Shown here: piece after piece, positions 49,664 through 61,070 of the stretch
How positions within the stretch are numbered: position 1 is the first letter of the stretch
Layout: each line of letters opens with the position of its first letter
Assembly: GCA_019240835.1 (NCBI GenBank)
Contig: JAFAXQ010000246.1
Span: 1-61,070 of the forward strand
DNA from: Ktedonobacteraceae bacterium
GTDB lineage: Bacteria > Chloroflexota > Ktedonobacteria > Ktedonobacterales > Ktedonobacteraceae
Reading direction: 5' to 3'
Length of the DNA stretch: 61,070 bases
Notes under the pieces: generated by a model
Databases searched by the model: none
What the model saw: the letters and a program-made list of their open reading frames with translations, nothing else
What the model was told of the DNA's origin: nothing
Made by a program: the position numbers and the translations under genes

Positions 49664-51877
49664 TCACATGTCAACAAACACATCTGCCAGCCTCATGATC
49701 CGCTGCTCGTCAGGCCAAGTTTCACGAGCTTTTCTCCAGACAGTGACCGCTTCCTGCCGCCGCTTCTCGCTTCCCAACGCCTTGGCTCCTGCGACTCCTG
49801 CTAGCAGATAGTGTTCAAATTCCTCCATATTGCCTGCTCCAACCGCCGCTGCCGCCTGGTGGTTGATGATCTCAATACGAAGACGCTCAGGGACGACGAT
49901 GGGTCTAGGAAGCTGGTCAACTTGTGCGAGCTTGCTTGCAGCTTCTTGGTAGCGATCATAGGCACGCGACGGGTTATCGTACCTCTCTTCATGATTCGCT
50001 AGAGCAAGGTTGCTCAGTCCTTCAAACAAAATCACCTGAAAGAGACCATAATCCGTCGAGAGGAATACAGGAATTTCTCTGACTACCTCTGGGAAAATGG
50101 CCCGTGCCTCGCTGATCGAACAAAGTGCTTGCTGGACTTTCCCATTTTGTGCATAGCCGTGAGCCAACTCAGCATATGCCTTGCTCCGCACGAGGAGCGG
50201 TAGAGTATCGTCTCTCTCCTTCACATCACTGTAGAGGAGTGCTTGTTGGCAAGTCTGTAACATTTCCGCTCGTTGTCCATTAGTGTAGAACGCATCTCCG
50301 AGATGAGTAAGAGCTGTGACGAGCAGGGTTTGATCTCCTGCTACATGAGCATACTCCACTGCTTGTTTACAGCAAGCCACTCGTTCAAAGAAACGAAGTC
50401 GATGCAGAGCCACTAAACCCAATAGCAAGTACCCTTGAGCGGCAAGGTAGGCGCTTTTTTGTTTATAGGTAGGAAGTTGTTGGATCAACGCGGTCAGCAC
50501 GGGTAAATACTTAGGCAGTACATACTCGACAGTAGATAATCCATCTCCCCGGAGTAGGTGCCAGCACGCCGTGATGCTGGCGCTACATTGGGCCAGAAAC
50601 TCTTCCAGGAGCAGGGCGGTGAGAGGTCCCGCTTGCACTTTGGTCAGCAGGGCAGCAGAGACCGTCGCCAGCGTCGTAAGAGCCAGGCGTCGCCCTAGCA
50701 GCACGTCACTGCTCGTCTTGCCAGCCTGATCGCTCATGGTGTTCCATCTCTCTATCTGCTCGTGCAGCAGGGCTTGCACGTGGGAACAAGCGAGCTGCTG
50801 TTCTTGCCAGCCAGCCAGCACTCCCTTCAGCACGTCGACCTGCTCACTGAACCAGCTTGGCCAATCGCACACCTCCACACGTCGTGGCGAGGGGTCGAGC
50901 ACCAGATGGGCAGGCACCAGCACTCCGCTTTCTGCTGGCAACAACGGTTCTTGTCCTATTATACTAGCATGCTCAAGCGCACTATGCTCTCCCCGAACAC
51001 GTCGCCGCGTGATCTGTTTGGCGCGCAAATACTCCGCGATCTCCTGCGTGCGTGCATCAGGATCGCGCCCCTCTTCTTGCAATGCTTCAAGGGCCTGTTG
51101 ATAGCACGCTTCCGCCTCCTGGTAGCGCTCCTGCTCTCCCAGCAGTTCCAGCAACGGGCGCAACGCATCCTCATCAGTGGGATGGGCCTGCCAGTAGGTG
51201 TGCAATCGCAGTTCTGCCAGGGCATGATGCCCGTGCTGGCGGTAGAGAGTAGCCAGCCGATGCACACACTGCCGATGCTGCCCCTCTAGACGCGCACGCC
51301 GTGGCATGGCCCACGGGCTATAGCGTTCCTCGACCAGATACGTGCCCCGTGCGGCTAGCTGAGAGGCGACTTCCCACAGCGACAGCGCCTCCTCGCCAAA
51401 GCGCTCCAGGCGTGCAGCCTGCTCGACATTCCACGTAAATGCATCGGCATCCACCCAGATGTGCGGATAGGCCGCCAATTGGTAGCCGTTGCCATTGGCG
51501 GGGGTGCCTTGCCTGAGCAGCAGGACGTGTGTGCTGCCGGGTGGGCGCAACAGTTTGCGTAGGGCGTAGACCACATTATCCAGGCGTTTGGCAGCCGCTG
51601 TGCTACTGACTTCAGGCCAGAAGTGCTCCATGATCTCATCGCGCAGAGCGAAGCGATGGGGTTGGCTCAGCAGCAGTTTGAGCAGCCAGAGGGCAGCGGT
51701 GGCATCCTTGATAGCCAGGTGCTCTTCGCAGAGAGCGTTAGCGCAGCCGCGTTGCTGGTCAATCCACTCGATGTGCAGTGGCCCAAAGGTGTAGATGCGG
51801 ATGTGCGTGGGGCTGGCACGGTCAGGCTGGGCATGGGGAACTGGGGGGTGTGGCGTGGCGGTGTAGTCTGACTGCAT
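49664..51877 (-). CDS. SARP-family regulator (OmpR-type wHTH plus BTAD plus TPR-like C-terminal region)
   Basis: IRIYTFGPLHIEW..., BTAD helices (ALSLWEVA...RLATLYRQHGHHALAE...YQQALEAL), and a long helical-repeat tail. Start moved to MQSDY (51877) with a GGAAGGAA SD. Confidence 0.75.
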   Translation of the reverse strand: MQSDYTATPHPPVPHAQPDRASPTHIRIYTFGPLHIEWIDQQRGCANALCEEHLAIKDATAALWLLKLLLSQPHRFALRDEIMEHFWPEVSSTAAAKRLDNVVYALRKLLRPPGSTHVLLLRQGTPANGNGYQLAAYPHIWVDADAFTWNVEQAARLERFGEEALSLWEVASQLAARGTYLVEERYSPWAMPRRARLEGQHRQCVHRLATLYRQHGHHALAELRLHTYWQAHPTDEDALRPLLELLGEQERYQEAEACYQQALEALQEEGRDPDARTQEIAEYLRAKQITRRRVRGEHSALEHASIIGQEPLLPAESGVLVPAHLVLDPSPRRVEVCDWPSWFSEQVDVLKGVLAGWQEQQLACSHVQALLHEQIERWNTMSDQAGKTSSDVLLGRRLALTTLATVSAALLTKVQAGPLTALLLEEFLAQCSASITACWHLLRGDGLSTVEYVLPKYLPVLTALIQQLPTYKQKSAYLAAQGYLLLGLVALHRLRFFERVACCKQAVEYAHVAGDQTLLVTALTHLGDAFYTNGQRAEMLQTCQQALLYSDVKERDDTLPLLVRSKAYAELAHGYAQNGKVQQALCSISEARAIFPEVVREIPVFLSTDYGLFQVILFEGLSNLALANHEERYDNPSRAYDRYQEAASKLAQVDQLPRPIVVPERLRIEIINHQAAAAVGAGNMEEFEHYLLAGVAGAKALGSEKRRQEAVTVWRKARETWPDEQRIMRLADVFVDM

Positions 51878-51970
51878 AGCTAGTTCCTTCCGAGCAAGCA
51901 AGGTTACTGACTCTTGCTGACGTGCAGTATAGCACATCTTTGCTGCTTATGCTAGTGGCTCATGAATTTC

Positions 51971-53318: not shown

Positions 53319-54659
53319 TCATAGCGAGGGAAGAGGCTTGCGTCTTCGCGCTTCAAACCAGTTGAAGAGGTAGGCAAGCGTTACGAGTACGAAAAAAGCA
53401 TTGCGCACACTTACTGCTTGAATAAAGCCCGGCACGAGTGGAATAAGCAGCAAATCAACCGGACGGGTGTAGAGATACAAAATAAAGGTGGTGAGGAGCG
53501 AGATGCTACCCCATGCGAATAGCCAGAAAGCGTCAAAAGCACCGACATAGGCGAGCAGTGGAATAATCCAGATCAGATATTGTAGGCTAAAGACTTTTCC
53601 TGTAGCTATGAAGACGAGCAAAAGCGCAATGCTGACTTGTGCGATATCAAGGCGGCCTCGCCATTGCATCCACAGCGTATAAGCATACCCTATGATGAAG
53701 AGAAGCCCGCTTAGAAGTGAAACAAAACCAGCTAATTTACTACTAATGTTGAGCGAACCATACGTATAGGTAATCTGCAGCGGAACACCGAAGTGCATTG
53801 CCAGCCAGAGAAAAGTACTGCCAGTGGCTTCAACTTGTATGGGTCGCTGCACAAAATAGTTCAATTGATCGAGAACTGCTCCTTGAAAATTGAGCAGGGC
53901 GAATGCTCCTGTAACTGCTAATAGCATACCTAAAAAGAGCAACAGATTTTTCCAGTACCAGTCAAAGGCACCACGGAAAGTGAGCCAGAGATCGTGCGGA
54001 ATTGATGTTAGGGAAATGCTTGTAGGAGGTGTATAGAAACGTCCTCGCTCCTGCTGCTCTGCGATAAAAAGTGAGGGAAGAAGTAGGATAGGGTACAGCT
54101 TAAAGAGCACTGCGAAGGCGAGGGCTATGTAGGCCCAAGCCCAGCGCCTTTGTTCTGCTGCGATGATAAAGAGCAGTGTCAGCAAGGCTGGAATTAAATC
54201 GAAACGTATCTGTACTGTTGCTAGCGCCCCGATGAAGATGTACAGCACGAATATCAGCGCGGCCCCACGTGGCCCGTAACGTAACAATAGCCAGTAGATC
54301 AGGGCTGATGTAAGCGCCATGAGCAAGACAAATGCCATCTGATAATTGAGTAGGGGTGCCAGCAGTGCTAGCGAGAACAGTAATAGCGTAAGTGGTGGGT
54401 ATTCTAGTGGCAGCATATGGAATGCTGGCTGTGGTTGCGCAATGTGCAAGAATGCACATTGCGCTGGAGGAAGTAGGTGTGTTGCATCGCTGCCGAGCCA
54501 GAAGGTCAATGCGTAACATTGGTAGCGTGCTGGATCGGTTCTTGGTAAAAAGATTTGCCACGCGGAACTGCAGAAGGCAGCGATTGTCAGGAGAGTAATG
54601 GGAATATATGTTACGGTACCACTTCGTGCTAGCAAGGCATTCCACTTATCTCTCAACAA
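53319..54659 (-). CDS. Polytopic membrane protein, GT-C/DUF2029-like (possible glycosyltransferase)
   Basis: At least 10 hydrophobic segments and the length typical of DUF2029/GT87-like proteins, judged by pattern only. The start overlaps the NACHT gene stop by 14 nt. Confidence 0.45.
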   Translation of the reverse strand: MLRDKWNALLARSGTVTYIPITLLTIAAFCSSAWQIFLPRTDPARYQCYALTFWLGSDATHLLPPAQCAFLHIAQPQPAFHMLPLEYPPLTLLLFSLALLAPLLNYQMAFVLLMALTSALIYWLLLRYGPRGAALIFVLYIFIGALATVQIRFDLIPALLTLLFIIAAEQRRWAWAYIALAFAVLFKLYPILLLPSLFIAEQQERGRFYTPPTSISLTSIPHDLWLTFRGAFDWYWKNLLLFLGMLLAVTGAFALLNFQGAVLDQLNYFVQRPIQVEATGSTFLWLAMHFGVPLQITYTYGSLNISSKLAGFVSLLSGLLFIIGYAYTLWMQWRGRLDIAQVSIALLLVFIATGKVFSLQYLIWIIPLLAYVGAFDAFWLFAWGSISLLTTFILYLYTRPVDLLLIPLVPGFIQAVSVRNAFFVLVTLAYLFNWFEARRRKPLPSL

Positions 54660-57336
54660 CTGAGTCCTCCATCACACTTTGGACTGTGCTGAGGGAGGCG
54701 AGGTACTCAAGCAGCAAGTGGTGGATAAAGACGTAGCCTCCTCCTACCTTACGCAGCAGCAGTCGCTCACTGGCTTCATCCAGAAAGTGCGCATAGTTCC
54801 AGGGAGTATATCCCTTACCTGTGAGAATTACGCGCAAGACCATGTGTTGTAGGCATGCGTACCCCCCGTTGAGTAGGAAGAGGATCAAGGTGGCAATCAG
54901 ACCCAGGGGGACCGACCACAACAGTCCAGATGCAAGATCGGTAGGGATCAGCCAAAAAGAGAGCGCGAGGCTCAAACCAGTGAAGGCTAGGCCAATAGGA
55001 AATCCGATGAGAACGCCATTGCGTGCAGAAAGTCGGATGCCTTCATTCGGCCTGATATGGGTACGGTCTTCCAACAAGCGCCGCGACAATCCACCGAGCC
55101 ACCATCCTATGGCTGCACCAGCCAGTCCGCCGATGAAACCGCTAGTGAGCAGATGCATCTGCCACAAAGCAAAATTGAGGTAGACTTCATAGCCCAGCCC
55201 CACCGTTCCTCCCACCAGCATCCCAAGGAATCCTCCAAGCAACGAGATCGTCACCCGCCGTCGGATAGGTACTGCCGACCAGACGAGCGCCTCGACGGGT
55301 TGGATCTGTGTTTCTCGACCACCAACTAGGGTACCAGCCAGCCCTCCGATGAGTACTGCGGTCAATCCATAACTCAGTTCTTCTACGACCTGATTGTAGA
55401 CGCTAGAAGAGAGTGGACAAGGCACCCAGAGCAGATTGATCAGTACAAAGATTAACCCAAAGCTCAAGCCAAGCAGTGAGGTGATCACTCGTCGTTGGAT
55501 AGGTATTGCCGACCAGAAGCCAGTCTCGATAGACTTCATCCGTGTGTCTCTGTGGCCAAATAAACCACCAATCGATCCTCCCAGTAGCCCAAACCCCAGT
55601 CCGTAGGTGAGTCCGACAATTGAGAAGGGCAGGAAAAAGGCCAGCAGTTGTGCTCTTGTGCCAAATACTGGCAAGCCGTATGCGCATTGCGATGCTGTCA
55701 CGGCCGTGTGGGTCAAGAGCGCAAAAAGTTGGGCGTGGACAACCTCATACAGGGGGACATCGGCAAGCATAGCTGTTAGGCCTGCCAGCACCCCCACGAG
55801 CAGGCCTATGAACAGTCGACAGTACCATCGAAAAGCTCGAGGCTCCAAGAGCCAATTGGGTTGCATGCTCTCGATGTAGAACTCGGTCTGCTGCTGCCGC
55901 ACTAACTGCCGTGCCAGCCAGGCTAGGTAGCGCAGGGTTTGCGCTGCTGTATAGCAACTCTGGTTGCTCCGACGGGTGAGCAGCATATGCCTAACGTAGA
56001 CCGCAAAGACCTGGTGGCGTCGGGCCTGCAAGGAAAGCGGCTGTGGGAACGCATCGACCGTTTTGCCCTGGTAGGTCAGTGCCAGCATGCTCAACATCAG
56101 CGGGTTGCTCGCCAAATCGCGCAAGGCTGGATCCGCATGCAATGCCTGCTCTAATGCTGCTAGTTGCTCCCCGGCACTAGCCAGATACGCCTCAACCTGC
56201 TCGGAGGTGAGCGGTTGCACCACGACAGCGCGAGAGAGCAAAAGCCGTGCTGGCTGTGCGAAATACTCGTCCTGCCGACAGCACACCACTAGGGGTAGGA
56301 ACCCATGCTCCTGTCGATAGGCGTTGATGGTCTCGATACAGGCACTGCGACAGGTAGGTCTCACCTCGTCCAGACCGTCAAGCAGGGGTAAGATCTGCTC
56401 GGTCTGTATCCAGAACTGCGCCAGCTTGCGAGGAACCTGGTACTTGCTGTGCAGTTCCTCCTCTAACCAATCGCTCAGTGAGCATTGCTTCTGAGCCCAG
56501 GAGGACAGATTGAAGACGACAGGGATGGGATGGGTTTCATCCCGGTCCGCTCGGTCGAGTAGATTGCGAGCTAGCTCCAATAAGAGCGTCGTCTTGCCCA
56601 AACCAGGCTCCCCAAGAATGAGCAATTCGCCATTGATAGCATCGTAGACTTGACTGAGATCGGTACCCGGGGGCAAGGGCTGAGCGATCTGCTTGGGCTG
56701 ATACACGTGCCAGGGATTGGCTACTGCGTCGGCTCGCTCCTGCAATCCCAGGGCTATAAGAGGTGCCCCGTGTAAGGACTGCTCTAACACCCCGCTGATC
56801 CAGAAGGTACGCACTTTCCTGACCATCCGCTGACGATTCTGTTGGCTCATCGGAGCAGGTCCTAGCTGGGCTACCGATGTGGGTAGGTCCGCAACCAAGG
56901 AAGGCGACAGCTTGGCCAGGGAGTTCAAGGAGCCGATGGCTTGGCCGTTCGCGGAGCAGTCTATGCTGCTGAACAGGGCAGGACGCTGATCCGCTTCTCC
57001 CACTTGAGCGCTCCTAGTCTGCCCAGCAGTCTCTTGCTGTTGTCCAGGGATGGGGGGCGGCATGCTCTCCTGCTCAATAGAGCAGGGGAGCAACCCAAGC
57101 TCCTGGGCATCAAGGTCAAAAACGTCACACAGTGCGTGGCGATAGCGGGGACTAGGAAAGGAAATGCCACGTTCCCAGCGAGCGACAGTGCGGGGATCAG
57201 GCTCACCGGGACCGAAATCCGGCAGGCGGCTTATGCGTGTTGCAACCTCTTCAAGTGTCCAGAAACGCAGCTCCCGTTCCTGTTTCAACTTCTGATTTGG
57301 CTTCCCTTTTTTCTTTGGATAAGTCTGCTCTTTCAT
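54646..57336 (-). CDS. STAND NTPase: XRE-like HTH plus NACHT plus repeated multi-TM C-terminal region
   Basis: HTH (WTLEEVATRISRL...RTVARWERG), Walker A GEPGLGKTTLL, Walker B LLDGLDEV. Repeated TM modules (IETGFWSAIPIQRRVITSLLG and VEALVWSAVPIRRRVTISLLG) and a C-terminal FLDEASERLLLRKVGGGYVFIHHLLLEYLA. The ORF track extends to 57453, but that extension is made of an intergenic-looking repeat. Confidence 0.8.
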   Translation of the reverse strand: MKEQTYPKKKGKPNQKLKQERELRFWTLEEVATRISRLPDFGPGEPDPRTVARWERGISFPSPRYRHALCDVFDLDAQELGLLPCSIEQESMPPPIPGQQQETAGQTRSAQVGEADQRPALFSSIDCSANGQAIGSLNSLAKLSPSLVADLPTSVAQLGPAPMSQQNRQRMVRKVRTFWISGVLEQSLHGAPLIALGLQERADAVANPWHVYQPKQIAQPLPPGTDLSQVYDAINGELLILGEPGLGKTTLLLELARNLLDRADRDETHPIPVVFNLSSWAQKQCSLSDWLEEELHSKYQVPRKLAQFWIQTEQILPLLDGLDEVRPTCRSACIETINAYRQEHGFLPLVVCCRQDEYFAQPARLLLSRAVVVQPLTSEQVEAYLASAGEQLAALEQALHADPALRDLASNPLMLSMLALTYQGKTVDAFPQPLSLQARRHQVFAVYVRHMLLTRRSNQSCYTAAQTLRYLAWLARQLVRQQQTEFYIESMQPNWLLEPRAFRWYCRLFIGLLVGVLAGLTAMLADVPLYEVVHAQLFALLTHTAVTASQCAYGLPVFGTRAQLLAFFLPFSIVGLTYGLGFGLLGGSIGGLFGHRDTRMKSIETGFWSAIPIQRRVITSLLGLSFGLIFVLINLLWVPCPLSSSVYNQVVEELSYGLTAVLIGGLAGTLVGGRETQIQPVEALVWSAVPIRRRVTISLLGGFLGMLVGGTVGLGYEVYLNFALWQMHLLTSGFIGGLAGAAIGWWLGGLSRRLLEDRTHIRPNEGIRLSARNGVLIGFPIGLAFTGLSLALSFWLIPTDLASGLLWSVPLGLIATLILFLLNGGYACLQHMVLRVILTGKGYTPWNYAHFLDEASERLLLRKVGGGYVFIHHLLLEYLASLSTVQSVMEDSVVER

Positions 57337-57392
57337 CTCTTCAATTGCCTTCTTTTTAGCTTTAAGCTGCCACTTGCACTCTCTTCCCTGAA

Positions 57393-57506
57393 GGGGAATG
57401 AGAGTTGAGTAGGGCGGTTCGCACATATATAAACAATCTTTGCCATCCCTCATTATACGTATTCGGGGAATGAGAGTTAGGTAGGGCGTTCACACATGGA
57501 TAAACG
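57393..57506. repeat. Two copies of a 42-43-bp direct repeat, 72 bp apart
   Basis: GGGGAATGAGAGTTGAGTAGGGCGGTTCGCACATATATAAACA (57393-57435) versus GGGGAATGAGAGTTAGGTAGGGCGTTCACACATGGATAAACG (57465-57506). Confidence 0.85.
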
Positions 57507-57554
57507 GGCCTTTAGAGGAAATTTGCATACAAGTGACTACTCGTTGTTCCCTAG

Positions 57555-57592
57555 TTGCACCTTGTTGTCTCCTGATTGCACGTTGTTGCTCC
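57555..57592. repeat. Tandem 17-18-bp direct repeat TTGCAC(C/G)TTGTTG(T)CTCC upstream of lanA
   Basis: TTGCACCTTGTTGTCTCC (57555-57572) and TTGCACGTTGTTGCTCC (57576-57592). Related CACCTTGTTAC at 57744-57756 and CGTTGTTCC at about 57541. Confidence 0.7.
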
Positions 57593-57805
57593 ACAAATGT
57601 CATTCAACTGCCAGGGATGGTCCATGTATGCTTCCAGTGTCGAGACGATCCATGGTAGCCTTTGGAAAAACCAAGGCGTTTCAGGCCAAATTGGTCTAAC
57701 CACCAATGGACAGTTTACCTACCTAAATTTTGTACAACTTAGTGACACCTTGTTACTAATTTTGCAGGACTGTTTAGGTAGAAGTGATTGATTTAAGGAG
57801 AAAAG

Positions 57806-58003
57806 ATGAACACCGATTCTGGAGCTAACATTAACGACAGCAACAATCCTTTCAAGCTTGATGTACGCATTTTCCCCTCACACGACATTAGTCATGCTCA
57901 TGCAGCGGTGAAGCCTGCATCACCCGCGACGTGCCAGACGTGTCGAGAAAGCCAGTGTAGCTGGAGCGTCATCACTACTTGTTGGTCTTGTTCTGCCTGT
58001 TAG
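57806..58003 (+). CDS. lanA: Class I lanthipeptide precursor peptide
   Basis: AAGGAG SD. The leader has an F-K-L-D (FNLD-type) box. The C-terminal 24 aa TCQTCRESQCSWSVITTCWSCSAC carry 6 Cys and 9 Ser/Thr. lanC and lanB follow directly. Confidence 0.85.
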   Translation: MNTDSGANINDSNNPFKLDVRIFPSHDISHAHAAVKPASPATCQTCRESQCSWSVITTCWSCSAC

Positions 58004-58098: not shown

Positions 58099-59484
58099 AT
58101 GTCTGAGAGAGTTCACCCAAAATATGCAGATTCTTTCATTGTTTGTCCTGCAGATACTAGAGAACCTATTTGGCATGCTATGGTCCCCTCCGTACTGCGG
58201 CAACGAGCCTTGGCGAACATACAAGTTATCGCTGAACGTTTGCAAAATCCTGAGTATATCCTGACCGTAGTAGAAAAGGCAAAAAAGCAGTCTCGGCTTT
58301 TTCATTGGGGGGGTGCTCTCTTCTCTAATAGCTTTGCAAGCGTTGCGCAATTCTATCTCTACCTGACACGTTGCCTTTCAGAACAGGCTTGGGAAGAACA
58401 TGCGCACAAATACCTACGTCTAGCGGCTCAGAGTACCCATCATTATCCGTTAGAAAAGCTTGGGCTATTTGATGGTAGTAGTGGCTTTGCATTGATTCTC
58501 TCTGCTTTCAGTGAACACGAGCCGCGCTATCATGAGACATACAATGAAGTCCAGGAGGAAATAGCAAGGCAAGTGCTGGCACGAAGGTGGAAGCGTCGTT
58601 ATTCAAGCGTAGAGGCGAGCGACTATGATGTCATGTCAGGTGTTTCCGGTATTGTTGGCTACCTTACCTCACTTCGATCTCCCAGTATCCATGTTGAAGA
58701 AGCGATCTTGAAACTCCTGGGCTATCTGATCTGGCTCAGCGACGAAGATCAGCCTGGCCGCAAAAATTGGTTTATTGCACCTGAGCATTTGCCTCTGGAG
58801 AGGTATCGTGAAGAGTACCCTGATGGATATTTGAACGTTGGCCTTTCTCATGGCATTGCTGGTCCCTTGGCTGCTCTTGCGCTGGCTTGGAAGGCCGGTT
58901 ATCGTATTCCTGGTCAGCGCGAAGCTATCGAACGGTTAAGTCAGTGGATCGTCGAACGTCAAGTGCAAGATGAATGGGGTATTAACTGGCCCACTGCGAT
59001 ACCTCTCCAGATGTCGCATAGTCCTGAACAATGGCGGATGCTTCCCTCGGCACGGGCAGCGTGGTGTTACGGCGCACCTGGTATTGCCTCTACCCTGTGG
59101 TTAGCAGGAGCTGCCTTACAGGATACGTCGTTGCATCAGATAGCGTTGCAGGCCCTTGAGACAGTTCTTCAACGTCCCATTGAGCAACGTAATATTAATT
59201 CACCTACAATCTGTCATGGGGTGGCAGGATTACTTGCTATCTGCCTGCGTTTTGCTCATGTATCACAAAGTCAGATCGTGCAAAAGCATATTTCGTTGCT
59301 CACTGAACAGATTTTGGGGGCTTGTCACTCCGATTTGCCACTTACTGTACAGGATCAGGAGAGCAATGGAATCTTTGTCGATGATCCTGGCTTTCTCACT
59401 GGTGCAATCGGTGTGGCATTAGTATTGCTGGCCGTGTGTACATCCGTTGAACCACAATGGAATCGTGCCCTTCTGATTGCGTAA
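58099..59484 (+). CDS. lanC: LanC-type lanthipeptide cyclase
   Basis: GLSHGIAGPL, WCYGAPGIA and ICHGVAGLL, the three LanC signature blocks that include the Zn ligands. Confidence 0.9.
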   Translation: MSERVHPKYADSFIVCPADTREPIWHAMVPSVLRQRALANIQVIAERLQNPEYILTVVEKAKKQSRLFHWGGALFSNSFASVAQFYLYLTRCLSEQAWEEHAHKYLRLAAQSTHHYPLEKLGLFDGSSGFALILSAFSEHEPRYHETYNEVQEEIARQVLARRWKRRYSSVEASDYDVMSGVSGIVGYLTSLRSPSIHVEEAILKLLGYLIWLSDEDQPGRKNWFIAPEHLPLERYREEYPDGYLNVGLSHGIAGPLAALALAWKAGYRIPGQREAIERLSQWIVERQVQDEWGINWPTAIPLQMSHSPEQWRMLPSARAAWCYGAPGIASTLWLAGAALQDTSLHQIALQALETVLQRPIEQRNINSPTICHGVAGLLAICLRFAHVSQSQIVQKHISLLTEQILGACHSDLPLTVQDQESNGIFVDDPGFLTGAIGVALVLLAVCTSVEPQWNRALLIA

Positions 59485-59527
59485 TTGGAAAGAACTGGGC
59501 ATAGAGGCAAAGACTGAGGAAATAGCT

Positions 59528-61070
59528 ATGGCGCAAGAGAAATATATAAATAATAGAGATCGTACGAGAATATATACTGCTGCAGGTTTTTGCCTTGTGC
59601 GTGCTCCTATCTTACCGGTCACTGTCTTTCAACTGATAGCTTCAGGGTCAGCTAAAGATACCACTATGGGGAAAAATCTTCTCACTAATCTTCCAGAAAT
59701 ACAACAGCGGAGTTATGATGTTTTAAGGTCTCTGGCTCCTGATCCATTTGTCACGCAGGCATTACTGGTGGCAAGCACTGACATATTCGAAGGATTGGCC
59801 ACAATTGAGCATGCTACTAGTTCAAATCGTCGTGTTGAGCGTGCATATTCTAGCCTTCTGCGTTATCTGACTAGAATGAGTACCCGTCCAACTCCGTTTG
59901 GCCTGTTTTCGGGCGTTGCGATAGCTACGCTGGGAGAATGTACAACGCTGCAGCTAGGTACACCTGTTGTACAAAGTTTGCGCACGAGACCCGGCATGGA
60001 GTGGCTTTTGTCTCTTATTCAGCAAATAGAGGAAGACAAAGCCTTGGTACCTCATTTGAATGTGGTAGCCAATCAGGCTGTGTATCTGGCTGGAGCACGA
60101 GCTATCCTTCCGTATGCAGACATCTACGGTACAGGTGATTATCGTGAGATTACGCTACGTGCTACACCGGCAGTATATTTTGTCATGGAGAACGCTCGTG
60201 CTCCAATTGCCTATAGTGAGCTAAAGAACGACCTTCTAGACACTTTTCCTCAGGCGGCCGAGCAGCAGGTTGAAGGCTTGTTGCAGCAGTTATGGGAGCA
60301 TCACTTCTTGATGAGCAATTTGCGTCCACCATTGACTAGTGCAGAACCCGAAGTTTGTGTTCTGGAGCAGTTGCGTAACAATCCTGCCTTAGCATCTTTT
60401 GCTTCCAGACTTGAGGAAGTGATTGAGCTAGAGAGGACGATTGATCATACTCCTATCGGCCAGGCCACGGCAAGTATATATCAAATGGTGGAGCGACAGA
60501 AACAGCTTGTGCCTGCGTCAGGAAGATCGCCCTTTCAAATTGACATGGGACTACATCTGGCACAAGCACAACTTAATAGAGAGGTAGGTGAGGCAGTCAT
60601 AGACGCGATTGAGGCACTGCTACGTATCTCACCACCACTCCAAGGTAGGCATCACTTGCAAGAGTACCTTACGGCCTTTCAAGAGAGGTATAGTCTAGAT
60701 GCAGAGGTACCCTTACTGGATTTGCTTAGCCCTGAAACTGGCCTAGATGCTCCACCAACCTATACTGAACCGCCTCGTGCTCATCCATTACCTGGTCTGC
60801 CTTTGCCTGATATGCGGGCCAGAGATAGTCTGTTATGTTCACTTCTCTCTGAAGCCTTATATCAACATGTGCAAGAGATTGAGTTAACAGATGAGCTACT
60901 CGAGCGGCTCTCCCAATGGAGGTCGCAAGAAATACCTCCTCCGCCGACGCTGGAAATGTTCCTGCAAATTCATGCGAAATCAAAAGAAGCTATTGATCGG
61001 GGAGAATGGAGAGGAGTCGTCGCTCCTGCCGGTATTGCCTATGGCGGACGTTCTTTTGGGCGTTTTTTCG
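59528..61070 (+). CDS. lanB: LanB-type lanthipeptide dehydratase, N-terminal (glutamylation) part; truncated by the window edge
   Basis: Not in the ORF track because it has no stop in the window. My translation from the ATG at 59528 (GAGGA SD) stays open to 61070. It contains FCLVRAPILP, RMSTRPTPFGLFSGV and GGRSFGRFF, typical LanB N-terminal motifs. Confidence 0.85.
   Translation, partial: MAQEKYINNRDRTRIYTAAGFCLVRAPILPVTVFQLIASGSAKDTTMGKNLLTNLPEIQQRSYDVLRSLAPDPFVTQALLVASTDIFEGLATIEHATSSNRRVERAYSSLLRYLTRMSTRPTPFGLFSGVAIATLGECTTLQLGTPVVQSLRTRPGMEWLLSLIQQIEEDKALVPHLNVVANQAVYLAGARAILPYADIYGTGDYREITLRATPAVYFVMENARAPIAYSELKNDLLDTFPQAAEQQVEGLLQQLWEHHFLMSNLRPPLTSAEPEVCVLEQLRNNPALASFASRLEEVIELERTIDHTPIGQATASIYQMVERQKQLVPASGRSPFQIDMGLHLAQAQLNREVGEAVIDAIEALLRISPPLQGRHHLQEYLTAFQERYSLDAEVPLLDLLSPETGLDAPPTYTEPPRAHPLPGLPLPDMRARDSLLCSLLSEALYQHVQEIELTDELLERLSQWRSQEIPPPPTLEMFLQIHAKSKEAIDRGEWRGVVAPAGIAYGGRSFGRFF

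Follow-up and report, generated by a model that had tools for sequence, protein, structure and literature searches.

The window analysed here, a stretch of 61,070 nucleotides (positions 1 to 61,070 of contig JAFAXQ010000246.1, assembly GCA_019240835.1) from a Ktedonobacteraceae bacterium, carries on its minus strand a gene for a protein that combines a helix-turn-helix (HTH) head, a NACHT NTPase module and a bundle of transmembrane (TM) helices. The interval 54646–57453 is occupied by only one long open reading frame (ORF) of 935 amino acids, which stays open up to an ATG at 57453. The gene-caller and database product of this ORF is 896 amino acids long and hence begins at M40 (57336), where a GAAGG box lies upstream; similarity to paralogues sets in at about residue 47. 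The HTH-NACHT-TM gene was accordingly placed at 54646–57336, and residues are numbered below on the 935-residue ORF unless model residues are named. The gene is transcribed divergently from a class I lanthipeptide operon, lanA-lanC-lanB, with which it shares a control region of 469 nt. On the plus strand, lanA (57806–58003) was recognized from its sequence and ribosome-binding site as a 65-residue precursor with an FKLDV leader box and a Cys/Ser/Thr-rich core; it is followed by the cyclase gene lanC (58099–59484; Pfam LANC_like, E 2e-55) and the dehydratase gene lanB (59477–61069; Lant_dehydr_N, E 6.6e-108), which runs off the window.

An earlier note, made from the letters alone, had described the protein as an XRE-like HTH followed by a NACHT NTPase and a C-terminal region of repeated TM modules. 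An AlphaFold2 model of the full-length protein (pLDDT 79, pTM 0.72) refines this layout: as modelled, the protein consists of an HTH joined by a tether to a minimal NACHT module, and the module carries an insert of about 340 residues with TM helices. The nucleotide-binding domain together with helical domain 1, as located by Pfam, motifs and fold match, covers residues 202–494 (55972–56850, minus strand, as are all features of this gene). Pfam NACHT (PF05729) matched residues 278–424 with 40.3 bits against a cut-off of 26.7 (E 3.6e-10), which bears out the NTPase assignment of the note. The Walker A sequence GEPGLGKTT (282–290) fits GxxxxGK[ST] and the Walker B sequence LLPLLDGLDE (357–363 = LLDGLDE) fits hhhhD[GA]hDE; the sensor Arg is residue 393, within VVCCRQ, and the winged-helix His lies in FIHH. 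Since all of the catalytic motifs are intact and the columns of Walker A, Walker B, the sensor Arg and the winged-helix His are invariant in an alignment of 55 homologues, the NTPase looks functional. Family model, motifs and predicted fold agree in assigning the protein to the NACHT clade of STAND NTPases, for which NTP-dependent oligomerisation is predicted.

Comparison of the model with animal NOD-like receptors (NLRs) revealed where the TM helices are situated. Residues 93–465 of NLRC4 align to model residues 163–894 over 341 positions (Z 14.1, root-mean-square deviation 5.4), and NLRP3 134–538 (Z 13.8) and NOD2 193–593 (Z 13.9) give the same span across the TM insert; overall, the three alignments comprise 325–341 residues at 16–17% identity between model residues of about 162 and 894. 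As the aligned positions of NLRC4 number only 341 over this span, about 340 residues are predicted to be inserted in the winged-helix domain. The first part of that domain, residues 503–537 (55843–55947), ends in QTEFYIESMQPNWL and was delimited by the AlphaFold2 helix 464–480 with the segment that follows it and by the NLRC4 alignment. The second part, residues 887–920 (54694–54795), consists of FLDEASERLLLRKVGGGYVFIHHLLLEYLA with the conserved His; it aligns with the end of the winged-helix domain of NLRC4, NLRP3 and NOD2, and the family alignment shows no variation at its G, F and H. In the model, the helix that ends near QTEFYIESMQPNWL marks the point at which the chain departs from the winged-helix domain; the chain then passes through eight TM helices and re-enters as a helix, a β-hairpin and a helix. 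The FLD...GGGYxFIH ending that the earlier note had singled out is indeed present, though not as a separate element, the NLR alignment identifying the closing motif FLD...GGGYVFIHHLLLEYLA as the predicted second half of the NACHT winged-helix domain. Neither the model nor the NLR alignment showed a second helical domain or a further C-terminal sensor.

The insert itself, residues 538–879 (54817–55842), was resolved by hydropathy, the AlphaFold2 model and the distribution of Lys and Arg residues as a glycine-rich bundle of eight TM helices arranged in four helical hairpins. The eight hydrophobic helices are long, lie between residues 546 and 863 according to hydropathy and model alike, and contain up to 7 Gly each; folded alone, the insert gave a pLDDT of 83 and a pTM of 0.80. 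The module motif occurs at residues 641–657 (IETGFWSAIPIQRRVIT; 55483–55533), next to the membrane on the predicted cytoplasmic side, at residues 719–735 (VEALVWSAVPIRRRVTI; 55249–55299), where its I, E and W are at least 90% conserved in the family, and in degenerate form at residues 800–812 (IRPNEGIRLSARN; 55018–55056), where P, N and G are invariant. Every copy stands ahead of a helical hairpin, so that of the motif said to open every module two copies are clear and one is degenerate, while the first hairpin has none. Profile-profile comparison of unit 638–715 with unit 716–797 returned a probability of 97% (E 1.6e-11, 62 columns), and that of unit 716–797 with unit 798–872 a probability of 95% (E 2e-8); on these scores the repetition of TM modules is beyond chance. 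The repeats proposed at the outset are thus supported by profile comparison, and it is their C-terminal location that has to be given up in favour of an insert within the winged-helix domain.

The loops that bear the motifs contain 5, 3 and 6 Lys or Arg residues, as opposed to 1, 0, 0 and 0 in the alternate loops. This positive-inside pattern puts both ends of the bundle and all of the conserved module motifs on the predicted cytoplasmic side, and it agrees with the eight helices counted in the topology check that the note had called for. The outer loops are short (9–36 residues) and leave no space for an extracytoplasmic ligand-binding domain. Pfam has no model for the insert; a search of the insert alone against the PDB gave no match exceeding the background level of helical bundles (best Z 7.9, root-mean-square deviation 14.8), and its shape matched one unnamed Atlas cluster only (TM-score 0.67). 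In a short family member of 578 amino acids (L018:10007-11743) the insert is reduced to apparently two or three hydrophobic segments between the winged-helix halves. Given this much shorter insert, inner hairpin modules appear to be gained and lost as units.

At the N-terminus, residues 54–113 (57115–57294) form a probable XRE-type HTH according to Pfam HTH_31, a family profile and the AlphaFold2 model. HTH_31 scored 21.6 bits at residues 55–120, below its cut-off of 27 (E 2.8e-4). A PDB search with the HTH as a single sequence gave no match; a profile built from 21 family N-termini matched solved XRE-type domains of the PbsX family, ImmR, SinR and HipB (E 2e-5 to 1e-3), the range reaching 1e-2 when the 434 repressor is counted in. 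Because orthologues carry PF01381 and PF13560, the family profile finds these structures and the model shows four helices at a pLDDT of about 80–97, the HTH call is probably sound in spite of its sub-threshold Pfam score, and DNA binding is predicted. In the model and with the family profile, the region thus folds and scores as the XRE-type HTH anticipated in the note. It is joined to the NACHT module by a disordered linker rich in Pro, Gln and Ser (residues 127–200; 56854–57075; pLDDT <50 at model residues 88–158), a flexible tether of about 70 residues for the HTH.

The HTH is distinguished by an insertion, SRLPDFGPGEPD, of 9–11 residues in the turn between helices 2 and 3 (residues 75–87; about 57193–57231 in the window), with the consensus I-[SN]-[RN]-L-P-x-F-x-x-G-[ED]-x-D-P. 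Among the aligned sequences it is common only to P0022, P0023, P0034 and P0038, which comprise a paralogue from the source genome (contig C66), a protein from a genome of the same genus (G109) and LanM-linked proteins of Dictyobacter; by score, the HTH of the Thermosporothrix hazakensis homologue ranks in the top group together with these insertion-bearing proteins. The NACHT cores of the Dictyobacter proteins that share the insertion belong to a clade distant from the window protein. This distribution suggests either exchange of HTH heads or repeated loss of the insertion.

To place the gene in its genomic context, we compared 20 class I lanC(-lanB) loci, drawn from 17 other genomes of Ktedonobacterales, and the second such cluster of the source genome (contig C230). 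The unpublished genome G077 underlies none of the conclusions drawn here. Seven of these loci (L081, L122, L124, L130, L131, L133 and L134) possess an XRE-HTH gene divergent from lanC and 0.5–1.1 kb upstream of it, and in all of the seven except L081 its product is a STAND protein made of an HTH and NB-ARC (+ DUF7779 + TPR). A lanA gene with an F(D/E)LD leader box lies between the XRE-HTH gene and lanC in L081, L122, L124, L131, L133 and L134; none was detected at that position in L130. XRE HTHs of this kind are scarce, numbering 1–20 per genome of 5–8 Mb, and the single one of genome G025 adjoins lanC. Judged from gene order and domain content, XRE-HTH-STAND genes repeatedly take up the position divergent from lanA in Ktedonobacterales, and in the window that position is held by a predicted membrane-embedded NACHT version; this recurrence favours a cluster-situated regulator. 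The pairing of class I and class II lan clusters with a gene encoding XRE-HTH, NB-ARC, DUF7779 and TPR extends to L018 and L125, and no description of this recurrent pairing was found in the literature searched.

The second class I cluster of the source genome is spread over two contigs, C230 (L081:196-3559) and C66 (L082:737-2332). It has a lanC (51% identical), a lanA with an FDLDI box and, at the start of C66, a lanB (53% identical). The divergent neighbour in this cluster (L081) codes for a protein with an XRE HTH, a single TM helix and a β-rich outer domain of about 190 residues.

The converse comparison started from the NACHT-TM family and covered neighbours within 8 kb at 78 genome loci, 24 of them HTH-bearing and 54 without an HTH. 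LanM was found at 5/24 HTH-bearing loci versus 1/54 of the others (Fisher p 0.009), a difference to be read with the relatedness of the genomes in mind, since they are not independent samples and the linkage amounts to about three events, the window included. The HTH-bearing homologues are thus placed non-randomly with respect to lanthipeptide genes, an outcome on which the note had made its proposal depend. In Dictyobacter vulcani and D. alpinus a class II LanM (DUF4135 + LANC_like) and a precursor gene are divergent from the HTH-NACHT-TM gene across a gap of about 340 bp, and the same synteny recurs in D. kobayashii, D. aurantiacus and a further genome of the genus (G002). LanC-like genes number 2–10 per genome of 7–9 Mb in five genomes checked; D. 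alpinus has two in 9 Mb, and one of these is the neighbour of the HTH-NACHT-TM gene. An uncultured Dictyobacter (L015) has an operon of LanM, two lanA, LanT and a 203-residue ORF divergent from the HTH-NACHT-TM gene, and in L018 a LanM-glycosyltransferase pair is followed by an HTH-NB-ARC-TPR gene and the short HTH-NACHT gene with its much reduced TM insert. Weak LanC-like matches in L014, L015 and L018 were rejected as separate LanC proteins, being the C-terminal domains of LanM. In D. kobayashii (L012, 6366–9659) LanM is split into several ORFs beside an intact NACHT gene, possibly a lan cluster in decay that has kept its regulator.

The control region between the NACHT gene and lanA (57337–57805) is rich in direct repeats. 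A repeat search located a 24-nt pair at 57393–57416 and 57465–57488, 72 nt apart, and three to four repeats of the TTGCACNTTGTT type at 57534–57587 and 57740–57754. The repeats are specific to this locus; they were not found elsewhere in the source genome.

On the strength of its architecture and of the recurrent position of such genes in lan clusters, we prefer to read the protein as a one-component transcription regulator of the STAND type that is embedded in the membrane and acts on the lanthipeptide operon next to it, an interpretation that we put at about even. The earlier proposal of a regulator for the adjacent cluster thereby gains comparative support from the LanM enrichment and from the class I XRE-HTH-STAND slot, and it has to be narrowed in that most members of the family are not linked to lan genes. 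According to this regulator reading, the TM bundle would be the signal-receiving part and would respond to something in or at the membrane, the candidates being the mature lanthipeptide residing there or a perturbation of the envelope or of lipid II caused by it. The opening of NLR-type switches involves a movement of the domain that holds the bundle, so that a rearrangement of the bundle could release a closed, ADP-type state. Nucleotide exchange and oligomerisation would come next, and oligomerisation would gather the tethered HTH heads onto the repeat-rich divergent promoter region. Their binding would control lanA-lanC-lanB and probably also the gene's own operon with a membrane protein gene downstream.

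A number of observations weigh against this regulator reading. Given its sub-threshold Pfam score and the insertion in its turn, DNA binding by the HTH remains a prediction. No NACHT-TM gene was found in any of the other class I clusters examined, the window being the sole class I case, and the closest lanA/lanC orthologue (L115; LanC 64% and lanA 63% identical) has no HTH or regulator gene upstream; L115 has no lanB nearby, and its upstream DNA is unrelated to that of the window. LanM is absent within 8 kb of 19/24 HTH-bearing genome loci, and no lan genes were seen on seven metagenomic contigs with HTH-bearing members, which include the closest HTH-bearing orthologues. In terms of independent events, lan linkage comes to about three for NACHT-TM and about five for NB-ARC-TPR. 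A search for an operator motif common to the promoters of the C66 paralogue and the G109, Thermosporothrix or Dictyobacter orthologues returned none. Moreover, the direct repeats could belong to a SARP regulator encoded nearby (49664–51937), which may be the true activator that uses them. Since most members are not linked to lan genes, the linkage is, as far as these neighbourhoods go, a property of some lineages and not of the whole NACHT-TM family. Around the 19 HTH-bearing loci without LanM we noted hydrolases, P450s, other HTH/NB-ARC genes, halogenases and terpene cyclases, with nothing recurrent.

The SARP gene is on the minus strand and encodes a large protein with Trans_reg_C, BTAD and a TPR-like tail. 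It is situated between a block of aromatic-acid genes (43–49 kb) and the NACHT/lanthipeptide block.

The breadth of the family bears on a different interpretation. More than 1000 whole-protein relatives were retrieved, nearly all from Ktedonobacteraceae, and a genome scan also located the NACHT-TM core in Anaerolineae, Chloroflexales, Chlorobia, Acidobacteriota, Proteobacteria and Methanosarcinales. A search with a profile of just the insert gave 5418 cluster representatives, of which 3088 reached an E-value of 1e-10 or lower; nearly all matches fell at positions 450–900 of proteins of 700–1100 amino acids. The survey of bacterial NACHT proteins by Kibby et al. already lists TM regions "inserted into the NACHT module", which are presumed there to be intramembrane or periplasmic sensors; it classes DNA-binding domains as 'adaptor' effectors and describes phage protection by bacterial NACHT proteins. 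With a family of thousands and this prior listing, the architecture is not the unusual one that the note had taken it for. The N-terminal heads of the family interchange among HTH, Ser/Thr kinase, TIR and trypsin-like peptidase, some members have WD40 or TPR in addition, and CHAT/WD40 parts occur in relatives. The source genome (4.3 Mb) alone contains six NACHT-TM copies, namely three with an HTH, two with a TIR and one with a head that received no assignment. The two TIR-NACHT-TM paralogues, on contigs C121 (L085:5057-7810) and C200 (L086:626-2977), have the same TM-inserted core and TIR_2 matches at E about 1e-20, and seem to represent the conflict-type side of this family.

Such a repertoire would be expected if the protein were an NLR-like conflict or defence sensor, directed at phage, invaders or non-self at the membrane and drawn from a diversifying set, in which the HTH is one interchangeable output head, here one that turns on a response in transcription, and the adjacency to lan genes is incidental, both being in accessory regions. 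Head swapping is a signature of conflict and immune NLR-like proteins and as such counts against the regulator reading; so does the presence of some family members among transposases and other STAND genes. The absence of a conserved neighbour across the 78 loci, where all-against-all clustering of the ORFs within 8 kb yielded spurious antisense ORFs and generic families, points in the same direction, as do the phage protection conferred by bacterial NACHT proteins and the copy number in the source genome. We nevertheless consider this explanation, the main rival of the regulator reading, rather doubtful, since the lan linkage is restricted to HTH-bearing members and far above chance, and since the gene and lanA have a divergent promoter region in common, as is the case for the HTH-NB-ARC-TPR genes at other clusters. 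Assignment to a named defence family was also dropped: the best PADLOC match (E 3.3e-4) involved residues of the P-loop region only, and the NCBIfam match to EruA reached 31 bits against a cut-off of 1000.

The composition of the bundle also raised the question of whether it could act as the effector, its oligomerised glycine-zipper hairpins forming a pore or disrupting the membrane in an abortive response, with the HTH as sensor or autorepressor. The very glycine-rich helices would suit such a role, and the modelled hairpins partly match glycine-zipper shapes (SlyB, Z 6.4; TraT, Z 5.9; YMGG-type Atlas clusters), but the SlyB and TraT matches are at noise level for helical models. Relatives carry known effector domains (TIR, protease, kinase) at their N-termini, which indicates that the variable head is the output and that the conserved bundle is more likely a sensor or an anchor. 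An effector function of the bundle is therefore highly improbable.

Immediately downstream of the NACHT gene, a gene from the ORF list for a polytopic membrane protein of 446 amino acids (53319–54659, minus strand) shares 14 nt with the end of the NACHT gene, stop codon included, and a terminator-like hairpin (53300–53277) comes directly after it. The two genes probably form one operon, which brings up the explanation that the NACHT protein mainly regulates its own two-gene operon, in envelope stress or immunity, and remodels the envelope upon membrane damage, by the self lanthipeptide or by foreign antibiotics, without switching biosynthesis. The overlap and the hairpin accord with this explanation, and the N-terminus of the 446-residue product is backed by paralogue alignments that start at residue 6. 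The short outer loops of the bundle are as expected for intramembrane sensing, and membrane-bound XRE-type sensors of cell-wall antibiotics such as BcrR exist. Set against these points, no homologue of the 446-residue gene was found at any of 80 related NACHT-TM loci, its paralogues are on other contigs (C41 and C313), and its glycosyltransferase assignment is a weak PIG-M/GT-C match (E 1.2e-3, below the cut-off). We regard it as unlikely that the protein chiefly governs the two-gene operon, and retain the lanthipeptide operon as the favoured target.

A wider form of the regulator reading would make XRE-HTH-STAND NTPases the dedicated and hitherto unrecognized regulators of lanthipeptide clusters in Ktedonobacteria, in two forms: a cytosolic NB-ARC-TPR form and a membrane-embedded NACHT form with a TM insert. 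In the latter, the mature lanthipeptide, or the perturbation of lipid II that it causes, would gate the NLR-type switch directly from inside the membrane. We offer this generalization tentatively. If true, a relative of the NLRs in bacteria would be a receptor for antibiotic autoinduction or immunity, not a phage sensor. The TM-inserted bacterial NACHT proteins catalogued so far have neither a known signal nor a known output; in the window and in cultured Dictyobacter strains there are a DNA-binding head and a candidate target, the divergent lanthipeptide operon, which makes function testable by a transcriptional read-out. The location of the bundle in the winged-helix domain further suggests a simple route from a membrane signal to the opening of an NLR-type switch. 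The HTH-STAND genes beside lan clusters of Ktedonobacterales are also candidate tools for activating silent clusters in this lineage, which is of natural-product interest.

Among known systems, the STAND cluster regulators of actinomycetes, namely large SARPs such as AfsR (SARP-NB-ARC-TPR) and LAL/MalT-type proteins, are similar in that a DNA-binding domain and a STAND NTPase are encoded in or beside a metabolite cluster, and their direct analogues are the HTH-NB-ARC-TPR genes at other Ktedonobacterales lan clusters. The window protein differs from them in its N-terminal XRE HTH, which is not of the OmpR or LuxR type, in its NACHT-clade NTPase, and in an intramembrane bundle in the winged-helix domain that replaces the TPR sensor; Pfam detected no TPR in it. 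By analogy, it would work like the large SARP and LAL cluster regulators, whose position beside the cluster it has, without being one of them by domain content. What is new is thus a putative NACHT-clade, membrane-inserted counterpart of STAND-type cluster regulators, TM-inserted NACHT proteins themselves being already known. In the literature searched, no paper dealt with these proteins of Ktedonobacteria or with the regulation of lanthipeptide clusters by HTH-STAND proteins, and no member of the TM-insert clade was encountered that had been tested.

BcrR of Enterococcus faecalis is a membrane-bound, XRE-type one-component sensor of cell-wall antibiotics in which an N-terminal XRE HTH is followed by TM helices, and LanRK (NisRK) is a two-component autoinduction system that signals by phosphotransfer. 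The likeness to both is a functional analogy only, in that a membrane sensor couples a peptide-antibiotic or lipid II-cycle signal to transcription; neither has an NTPase switch, and the comparison does not extend to homology of the TM regions. With other bacterial NACHT proteins the window protein has in common a NACHT module of the NLRC4/NOD2/NLRP3 fold, a variable N-terminal output, TM helices inserted in the module and an expansion of paralogues in a multicellular bacterial lineage. It is set apart from them in that it has no match in defence libraries beyond the P-loop and that the HTH subset is tied to lanthipeptide clusters, not to recognizable defence genes. The animal NLRs (NLRC4, NOD2 and NLRP3) are the best structural matches for its nucleotide-binding, helical and winged-helix domains, and the winged-helix His is conserved between them; in contrast to these receptors, the window protein lacks a second helical domain and leucine-rich repeats, has the TM insert, and presents an HTH as its predicted output in place of a CARD or PYD.

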